A DNA stretch of 6,064 bases from a virus. Taxonomy: Duplodnaviria; Heunggongvirae; Uroviricota; Caudoviricetes. Positions 1,984 to 2,275 of the stretch are shown in pieces (the stretch's first letter is position 1; the number at the start of each line of letters is the position of its first letter). A program made the position numbers and the translations under genes. The stretch lies in the IMG/VR virus record IMGVR_UViG_2700989162_000007; one strand, written 5' to 3'. The notes beneath the pieces were generated by a model, which did not search any database, was not told the DNA's origin, and worked only from the letters and a program-made list of their open reading frames with translations.

Positions 1984-2143
1984 AGCCTCACCTCCGCAAA
2001 TAACGGATGGCGTAGTTTTACACTGAGAAATGAAAGGGATTTGAAAAGAAAAAAACGCAAAAGCGGGCGAAACGATATATACAGTAAGGAAAGCACTCTA
2101 TCCAACAAACCACCCACAGTTAATCGGAATAAAAGCAGAGTGC

Positions 2144-2216
2144 TTATGAATGATCGCACGCCCGAAGGTTAGTATTTCTGCACAGCAATTTTGCAAAAAA
2201 AGGCGATCATTCATAA
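2144..2216. repeat. perfect 14-bp inverted repeat (TTATGAATGATCGC / GCGATCATTCATAA) with a 45-nt spacer
   Basis: Arms at 2144-2157 and 2203-2216 are exact reverse complements. The spacer contains a small CCTTCGG-type hairpin and an A/T tract. Confidence 0.6.
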
Positions 2217-2223
2217 CTTAAAC

Positions 2224-2269
2224 GTCTTTCAGTCACTCCGGGATTTCCCATCATCGCAGACTGAAAGAC
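2224..2269 (-). repeat. 11-bp stem / 24-nt loop hairpin just 3' of the tRNA cluster (possible processing or termination structure)
   Basis: GTCTTTCAGTC (2224-2234) is the exact reverse complement of GACTGAAAGAC (2259-2269). It begins 7 nt downstream of the tRNA-Gly CCA end on the minus strand. It is followed by GUUUAAGUU, not a clean U-tract. Confidence 0.45.
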
Positions 2270-2275
2270 TCTGAC

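Follow-up and report, generated by a model that had tools for sequence, protein, structure and literature searches.

In this study, we examined a 6,064-nucleotide stretch of DNA from a Caudoviricetes virus (IMG/VR record IMGVR_UViG_2700989162_000007), here called the window, and focused on the 292-bp interval that separates a block of four tRNA genes from a class II holin gene. The window is a segment of a lambdoid prophage whose genes read on the minus strand. Coordinates are given as window position and strand, and the RNA under study reads on the minus strand, the sense of the late operon. We found that the interval contains a conserved structured RNA, which the alignments of related prophages mark as a real feature. 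Our preferred reading, to which we give a probability of about 0.55, is that this non-coding RNA would be the 3' trailer of an autonomous tRNA operon inside the Q-dependent late leader, and would be released as a stable trans-acting RNA.

Hairpins H1, H2 and H3

The original prediction, made from the letters of the window, had described a perfect 14-bp inverted repeat with a 45-nt loop (2144-2216) and an 11-bp-stem hairpin directly after the last tRNA gene (2224-2269). A repeat finder recovered both exactly. Repeat I3 has arms at 2144-2157 and 2203-2216 (14 nt, 100% complementary, 45 nt between them), and repeat I4 has arms at 2224-2234 and 2259-2269 (11 nt, 100% complementary, 24 nt between them). 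A third hairpin, which had been missed, was found as repeat I7 (arms 2091-2099 and 2137-2145, 9 nt, 100% complementary). In 1000 dinucleotide-preserving shuffles of 1984-2275, a repeat of at least 11 bp with a loop of at most 60 nt appeared once, and one of at least 14 bp never appeared. Furthermore, folding of the minus-strand transcript, which had been proposed as a check, gave three consecutive hairpins for the RNA 2275..2040 at -69.8 kcal/mol (z = -3.4), and none of 200 shuffles folded as well. The RNA of the opposite strand folded at only -55.3 kcal/mol. The three hairpins are as follows.

2224..2269, minus strand: H1 (repeat I4), with outer and inner stems of 11 and 4 bp, separated by an asymmetric internal loop, and a terminal loop of 4 nt.
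2144..2216, minus strand: H2 (repeat I3), the core of the family, with a 14-bp basal stem, an inner helix of 7-8 bp and a CC-UUCG-GG mini-hairpin.
2093..2143, minus strand: H3 (repeat I7), with an 8-bp outer stem and inner helices.

To compare the element among relatives, we collected about 180 prophage loci (numbered with an L below) by motif scans of a one-genome-per-species collection and of IMG/VR. Two alignments are used below: A3, with 43 H2-H3 sequences that are less than 97% identical, and A4, with 40 H1 variants. RNAalifold predicted 39 base pairs in A3, and 97.8% of the cells at these pairs were paired, compared with 41-50% when the register was slid by shifting the 3' partner 1-3 columns. 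Compensatory changes were found in 9 pairs and amounted to 69 cells, against 22 +/- 4 in shuffles, and none of 500 shuffles reached 69. H1 behaved in the same way in A4: its 17 pairs were 97.4% paired, against 41-50% in the slid registers, and 4 pairs showed compensatory changes. Taken over the three hairpins, pairing was 97-98%, and the slid registers ranged from 32 to 50%.

The wobble cells also revealed a strand. G·U cells outnumbered A·C cells by 130 to 11, and pairing reached 97.4% on the tRNA-sense (late-operon) strand against 85.7% on the other strand. This bias indicates that the helices exist on the tRNA and late-operon sense strand, which argues for an RNA and against a double-stranded DNA site. 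Comparative analysis thus showed that selection on the RNA of the tRNA-sense strand preserves all three hairpins.

H2 has a basal stem of 16 bp in most relatives, against 14 bp in the window. Its inner helix closes a conserved 9-nt loop, AAAUUGCUG (motif TTTGCAAAATTGCTGTG at 2197..2181). RNAalifold and pair counts on alignments A2 and A3 placed compensatory changes at four basal-stem pairs and two inner-helix pairs, and in one locus (L135) the inner helix has been rebuilt as UUUUUAU/AUAAAAA. The outer stem of H3 is 99.4% paired. Three of its pairs carry compensatory changes in 9-17 of the 43 sequences, and the stem occurs in the versions GCACUCU/AGAGUGC, GCAUCUC/GAGGUGC, GCAUCUC/GAGAUGC and GCACUCC/GGAGUGC. 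The 3' strand of H3, GGGUGGUUUGUUGGAU (2115..2100), is rich in G and U and nearly invariant. When sequences were retrieved by the H2 motif, the H3 motif was invariant among them as well, and the H2 motif was at least 90% conserved in the set retrieved by the H3 motif. The loops and the G/U-rich strand are conserved beyond structural need, also in sets retrieved via the other motif. A covariance model built from A3, named R1, scored 127 bits for window 2219..2088.

In H1, the internal loop places GC-GAU-GA (2257..2251) opposite GA-GU (2238..2235), a pattern (C-G / GAU / GA...GA / UGGG-CCCG) that fits the kink-turn (k-turn) consensus. Its G and A loop positions were invariant or at least 90% conserved among the 40 variants, and the non-canonical (NC) stem covaries, for example as AGGG/CCUU in L115. 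We regard the k-turn as a lead suggested by this fit rather than as a demonstration.

A proposed tRNA operon and its 3' trailer

The features that surround the hairpins on the late-sense strand are listed here.

2676..2699, minus strand: strong, tR'-like intrinsic terminator, AAACCCGCC-uccg-GGCGGGUUU followed by a U-run (inverted repeat I10).
2596..2625, minus strand: sigma-70-type promoter-like site found by consensus scan, TTGCAG (2624..2619), 17-nt spacer, TATTAT (2601..2596).
2276..2586, minus strand: four tRNA genes called by ARAGORN, Met/Ile2 (CAT), Arg (TCT), Thr (TGT) and Gly (TCC), with CCA encoded in each.
2049..2068, minus strand: decayed intrinsic terminator, GCCCGC-UUUU-GCG and then U7.

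The tRNA genes scored 56-70 bits with the Rfam tRNA model. Repeat I4 begins 6 nt past the last of them, tRNA-Gly (2276-2350, minus strand). This arrangement is general among the relatives: in about 100 of 111 loci, the distance from a tRNA end to the H2 motif is 20-22 nt where H1 is lacking and 76-79 nt where H1 is present, from which it follows that the element starts 2-7 nt after the CCA. The tRNA is usually Gly-UCC. The original prediction had offered a 3' trailer or processing structure of the tRNA transcript, and also a small RNA (sRNA), as readings of the spacer. The compensatory changes, the G·U bias on the tRNA-sense strand and the position against a tRNA in about 90% of the loci speak for both readings, as does the intrinsic terminator that usually ends the element.

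We found a promoter signal ahead of the tRNAs. In the window, the -10 hexamer ends 9 nt ahead of the 5' end of the first tRNA. The pattern TTGCAn-17-TAT(T/C)AT (at least 8 of 12 positions matched), ending at a fixed place 6-12 nt before the first tRNA, occurs in 31 of 33 unique upstream sequences and in about 12% of shuffles; these 33 sequences are otherwise diverged, with a median identity of 45%. In the Stx2 phage of strain Sakai, experiments mapped a transcription start that serves the tRNAs downstream of tR' (PMC7547250). By analogy, the site in the window would act as a promoter, and the tRNAs and the element would be transcribed together.

At the other end, a canonical intrinsic terminator starts 9-25 nt past H3 in 61 of 84 unique downstream sequences, and two are present in 21 of them. 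The CGC-TTTT-GCG-T7 element that had been pointed out in the window belongs here and reads GCCCGC-TTTT-GCG-T7 on the minus strand (2068..2049). Most E. coli relatives have GCCCGC-UUUU-GCGGGC-UUUUCUUUU at this site. Within the E. coli clade, the 3' arm comes in a series of four alleles that are equally long, GCGGGC, GCGGGT, GCGGTT and GCGTTT, with hairpin stabilities of -13.7, -11.5, -6.6 and -3.3 kcal/mol, and this series may reflect decay, or tuning of read-through into the holin gene. Since the terminator of the window is decayed, the 3' end of the RNA in this prophage may be leaky. Among relatives, similarity stops right past the T-run of the terminator, as in L068. The upstream terminator (2699..2676) is located 87 nt downstream of Q and upstream of the tRNA promoter, an arrangement shared by many relatives, and is the tR'-like stop of the short late-promoter transcript.

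Taken together, the spacing and motif comparisons showed an RNA that appears physically fused to a tRNA 3' end, with a conserved promoter upstream and usually a terminator downstream. We infer that promoter, tRNAs, trailer and terminator would form a self-contained unit within the late leader. On the minus strand, its proposed order is promoter, tRNA-Ile2/Met, tRNA-Arg, tRNA-Thr, tRNA-Gly, H1, H2, H3 and intrinsic terminator. In lysogens, this cassette would be transcribed from the tRNA promoter, and cleavage by RNase P and RNase E after the tRNA-Gly CCA would release a stable trailer RNA of about 200-230 nt. The freed trailer may act in trans, either by base pairing with the help of a chaperone or by binding a protein, and the conserved AAAUUGCUG and GGGUGGUUUGUUGGAU would be its likely contact sites. 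The terminator would set the 3' end of the trailer and stop transcription from the tRNA promoter before it reaches the holin and lysis genes. Once the prophage is induced, RNA polymerase that started at pR' and was modified by Q would pass both terminators, and the hairpins would become the 5' leader of the lysis mRNA.

A more specific proposal is conceivable but rather unlikely: a new tRNA-linked structured RNA family of temperate enterobacterial phages, made of a k-turn hairpin and two conserved-loop hairpins that tRNA processing frees in lysogens, might have trans effects on the host or play a part in phage-host conflict. Examples would be an sRNA or sponge with a G/U-rich seed, or a protein decoy tied to counter-defence by the tRNA cluster.

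The tRNA cluster itself varies. The second tRNA (window 2432-2508, minus strand) changes its anticodon among otherwise similar prophages (L010-L129): it is Arg(TCT) in the window and Lys(TTT) in about 50 loci, and elsewhere it is called Phe(AAA), Phe(GAA) or 'Stop(TTA)', with irregular anticodon loops in several cases. This switching could serve codon supply or evasion of anticodon nucleases. The Prokaryotic Genome Annotation Pipeline (PGAP) calls the CAT tRNA a tRNA-Ile in an identical genome (CFSAN029787). We also considered complementarity between the H3 loop and the tRNA-Met/tRNA-Arg junction and dismissed it as chance, because it spans only 5-7 nt and because the second tRNA varies while H3 is constant.

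Weighing of alternative readings

Several observations weigh against the tRNA-trailer reading. The promoter match of the window, taken alone, is not above chance (2 found, 1.7 expected). Its terminator is the weakest allele of the series, with a 3-bp stem and -3.3 kcal/mol, and was not called by the terminator scan; among the relatives, 23 of 84 have no canonical terminator. Some loci carry the element without a neighbouring tRNA (the L011 type and Fels-1). In addition, the homologues were collected by exact motifs, so that each motif is invariant by construction within its own set, and the shuffle controls overstate significance because the sequences are related.

An alternative that we consider possible but doubtful is a purely cis-acting leader. 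After excision of the tRNAs, H1/H2 would cap the 5' end of the lysis mRNA against 5'-end-dependent decay by RNase E, the hairpins and the terminator would insulate the lysis genes, and no free trans-acting RNA would be produced. The location is favourable to this: the element was always found between Q and the lysis cassette and always in late-sense orientation, the start of H1 or H2 just past the tRNA CCA suits a stem that protects a 5' end, 73% of the variants have a terminator behind the element, and the next gene downstream is usually a holin. However, a cap or an insulator needs stable stems, not three hairpins with near-invariant loops. Other genes or the sRNA STnc100, and not a holin, directly follow the element in HK639, L173, L115 and Fels-1, and a strong terminator placed ahead of the mRNA that the cap would protect is more in keeping with a separate transcription unit. 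Since the near-invariant H2 loop and the G/U-rich strand of H3 suggest a sequence-specific partner, we favour a trans-acting RNA over a cis-acting cap. It is very unlikely that the interval is instead a neutral remnant, that is, decayed tRNA genes or a young hitch-hiking spacer that spread with the tRNA cluster. Most E. coli copies are indeed 95-99% identical, much of this conservation reflects recent common descent, and the terminator in the window is decaying. But copies of about 75% identity across six genera keep every helix through compensatory or wobble changes, ARAGORN and the Rfam tRNA model found nothing tRNA-like in the interval, and the hairpins have been reshuffled as modules (H2 alone, H1+H2, H2+H3) with the fold retained in each.

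The two remaining explanations would make the RNA structure incidental or move it to the DNA. No open reading frame (ORF) of at least 60 aa was found in 1984-2275, which bears out the statement that the spacer has no ORF of meaningful size. A 38-codon minus-strand ORF (2214..2098), encoding MNDRLFLQNCCAEILTFGRAIIHKHSAFIPINCGWFVG, had been noted there as a small ORF (sORF) of 37 aa. The frame exists on the late-sense strand and its start lies in the H2 stem, as described; as a gene it fared badly, and a small protein whose coding would explain the interval is highly improbable. When TTG is accepted for ATG at the homologous position, about 12 of 43 diverse variants keep the frame open as far as the shared stop, a partial openness that we note as a residual oddity. 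The entropy of the alignment columns also rises a little at third codon positions (0.33, 0.38 and 0.46). Against coding, a TAA stands at codon 28 in about 12 of the 43 variants, 1-nt indels or early stops interrupt the frame in about 11, and a frameshift makes it run on in about 8. A test that admitted TTG or GTG as start codons found the frame partly open in other clades but disrupted in about 70% of the variants, and we rejected it as coding. The start is TTG in 37 of 43, inside the H2 stem and without a Shine-Dalgarno sequence upstream. Between clades, the peptides agree less (about 58% identity) than the nucleotide sequences do (about 76%), and coding does not explain the compensatory changes or the bias of G·U over A·C. 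A 43-aa ORF on the opposite strand, annotated as a 'hypothetical protein' in vB_EcoS-689R5, was rejected too; antisense ORFs differ in frame and length between variants. The original prediction had also suggested the footprint or target site of a mobile insertion, in which the repeats would act as DNA, as a terminal inverted repeat or attachment site, and we consider this the least probable of all readings. The interval is a known cargo hotspot (stx, esterase, sRNAs), the 3' half of a tRNA-Gly beside the element in HK639 resembles what tRNA-targeting integrases leave, and insertion sequences (IS) have entered H3 in L094, L144 and L114. Yet the arms stand one hairpin loop apart at constant spacing in all 43 variants, and none of the repeats holds cargo between its arms. 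Pairing is kept through G·U pairs of one strand, an asymmetry foreign to a double-stranded DNA site. The element has no linked integrase or transposase, and the IS insertions are incidental, since they disrupt the element and are not bounded by it. Comparison of the same locus in related prophages, which had been proposed as a check, thus gave repeats conserved as hairpins.

Related RNAs, distribution and gene context

The covariance search against Rfam that had been recommended gave tRNAs and noise, with no other family above threshold. A gathering-threshold run over the whole window returned the four tRNAs only. With Rfam 15 and E up to 10, searches of window 1700-2900 and 2030-2280 returned only tRNAs and C/D-box snoRNA noise, the latter being models over H1 with 10-13 bits against thresholds of 37-70. 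The families STnc100, AgvB, AsxR and Esr41 gave no match to the element even at E up to 10. We therefore rejected membership in a curated Rfam 15 family (including STnc100, AgvB, AsxR, Esr41, IsrK/IsrJ, istR and isrB) at gathering threshold. In phage HK639 (L002), the segment 3120-3210, which covers H3 and the terminator, gave sub-threshold matches to istR (26 bits against 45, E 0.0016) and isrB (22.5 against 35, E 0.035); these probably reflect generic hairpin-plus-terminator geometry. Literature searches, both for the text of the conserved motifs and for prophage sRNAs linked to tRNAs, found nothing relevant.

The Q-to-holin interval is known to hold other RNAs. PasA, PasC and PasD are Hfq-bound sRNAs from this interval in prophages of enteropathogenic E. 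coli (EPEC) E2348/69 (PMC8550237; 10.64898/2026.05.13.724894). STnc100 is a further Hfq-bound sRNA of this interval. The Pas sRNAs and STnc100 (RF02076) share with the element the niche between Q and holin of lambdoid prophages, similar sizes (80-240 nt) and a 3' terminator stem-loop. The intergenic position of the Pas sRNAs by the holin/lysozyme operon also recalls that of the element, between Q and a class II holin (10.64898/2026.05.13.724894). In contrast to the element, they and STnc100 are not fused to a tRNA, and PasA is encoded on the strand opposite to the late genes (PMC8550237, table S5). Homology to the Pas sRNAs was rejected: when the spacer was compared by blastn at word size 7 with the PasA and PasD loci (E2348/69 739.5-745 kb and 1058.5-1062.5 kb), only noise appeared, and R1 found no match in either locus. 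The absence of the element from published sRNA lists is uninformative, because the strains behind the published Hfq RIL-seq and CLASH data, E2348/69 and O157 Sakai, seem not to carry it. STnc100 copies above the gathering score adjoin the element in HK639 (3254-3459), L173 (12185-12390), L019 (542-734; this locus also has an isrJ match) and Fels-1 (L181; 1273-1486, 1687-1809 and 2810-3028). The interval in some prophages is thus an array of tRNAs and several unrelated sRNA modules.

A host RNA offers a parallel in position. Lalaouna and co-workers reportedly described in 2015 the sRNA sponge 3'ETS-leuZ, cut from the 3' external transcribed spacer (3'ETS) of the E. coli glyW-cysT-leuZ tRNA operon. 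It is listed as 3'ESTleuZ in table S2 of a later survey (PMC8550237). Like the element, it lies directly 3' of the last tRNA of the operon on the same strand; H1 takes the corresponding place, 6 nt past the tRNA-Gly CCA and on the same strand. It ends at the intrinsic terminator of the operon, where the element would also end in most relatives, and its 5' end is expected from tRNA 3' processing. Unlike the element, which has about 190-230 nt, three elaborate hairpins and a phage location, 3'ETS-leuZ has about 50 nt and consists essentially of a terminator hairpin and a seed, and the two show no sequence similarity. The genes of the T4 RNAs RNAC and RNAD sit within the T4 tRNA gene cluster. These RNAs are co-transcribed with the phage tRNA cluster and processed from the same precursor, but T4 is virulent, they are internal members of the cluster and not a 3' trailer before lysis genes, and the resemblance to the element is positional only. 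RNAC and RNAD (species 1 and 2) are stable structured RNAs of about 120-140 nt whose function is still unknown (PMC9697503). The rrA/rrB/rrF sRNAs of the E. coli rrn dual terminators (PMC8144298) are likewise small terminator-delimited RNAs at the 3' end of a stable-RNA operon, and dual terminators also follow the element in many relatives. StxS and lambda 6S RNA, the transcript from pR' to tR' (PMC7547250), resemble the element as non-coding late-leader RNAs of lysogens with an intrinsic terminator that Q-modified polymerase overrides. However, they correspond to the segment upstream of terminator 2699-2676, while the element is located downstream, behind a separate promoter and four tRNAs. 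Judged on these sequence comparisons, the RNA is a new family within the known prophage late-leader and tRNA-trailer RNAs.

Among 5426 complete E. coli genomes, 540 carry the element, always on a chromosome and for the most part with 95-99% identity, whereas deposited phage genomes with it number only 6-7. Plasmids practically lack it (1 of 72,556 records). Beyond E. coli, it occurs in Shigella, Enterobacter hormaechei, Citrobacter sedlakii, Phytobacter ursingii and Yokenella regensburgei. The copy of HK639 is about 75% identical and is preceded by a truncated tRNA-Gly; its depositors annotated a terminator after the element. The truncated gene (2947-2993 of HK639) consists of the 3' half only, from the anticodon arm to the CCA, and follows an intact tRNA-Asn, which indicates that the element can persist when its tRNA is truncated. 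The hairpins occur in different combinations: H2 alone in Salmonella Fels-1, H1+H2 in L115 and L126, H2+H3 in Yokenella and C. sedlakii, and all three in the window. We did not accept H1 as a module of its own: in a scan that used H1 as the anchor it turned up solely ahead of H2 and never without H2, and the remaining matches were coding sequence. Insertions into the element were also seen, with an IS3-family element in the 5' arm of H3 in L094 (about 9640) and L144 (about 2150) and a different IS in the 3' arm of H3 in L114.

An RNA carried by about 1 in 10 complete E. coli genomes and by prophages of at least five other enterobacterial genera is left unannotated or mis-annotated as a hypothetical protein, and is not in Rfam. 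It would be the fourth unrelated RNA family of the Q-to-holin interval, beside StxS/6S, PasA/C and STnc100/PasD, and supports a view of this interval as an array of RNA morons and not of toxin genes alone. The 'moron hotspot' of the original prediction was apt in this sense, as STnc100, Pas sRNAs, an esterase gene or other cargo occupy the same interval in relatives. Fusion to a tRNA 3' end would make the element the phage counterpart of the 3'ETS-derived regulators of the host. The proposed unit also offers a testable model of how a lysogen can survive with a constitutively transcribed tRNA cassette placed directly before the lysis genes. Tractable systems for it are HK639 and E. coli 042, and R1 can be used for annotation.

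In the window, the order on the minus strand is a DnaC-like loader, DnaB helicase, ninH, Q, the terminator, the four tRNAs, the 292-bp interval, a class II holin, a 209-aa ORF and lysozyme. The gene context assumed earlier, with Q, terminator, four tRNAs, spacer and class II holin all on the minus strand, was therefore right. E. coli CFSAN029787 holds an identical stretch, in which PGAP calls the same genes and none in the interval. The features next to the element are listed below.

3202..2786, minus strand: antiterminator Q.
2275..1984, minus strand: the 292-bp interval.
1984..2048, minus strand: 5' untranslated region of the holin gene, with a ribosome-binding site (GGAGGTGAGG, ahead of the ATG at 1983); this region is part of the holin module and not of the RNA module.
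1983..1768, minus strand: class II holin.
1135-1764, minus strand: 209-aa ORF between holin and lysozyme.

Holin loci of the DLP12/Qin type match the window only as far as about 2020. In relatives, a YdfR-family gene takes the position of the 209-aa ORF. Downstream of the lysozyme gene, a run of 110 N at 422-531 hides part of the lysis/Rz region. Finally, a perfect 9-bp inverted repeat (1934-1942/1989-1997) pairs the ribosome-binding region of the holin gene (GCGGAGGUG, minus strand) with a segment 46 nt away within the holin coding sequence, and could occlude the Shine-Dalgarno sequence and affect holin translation.

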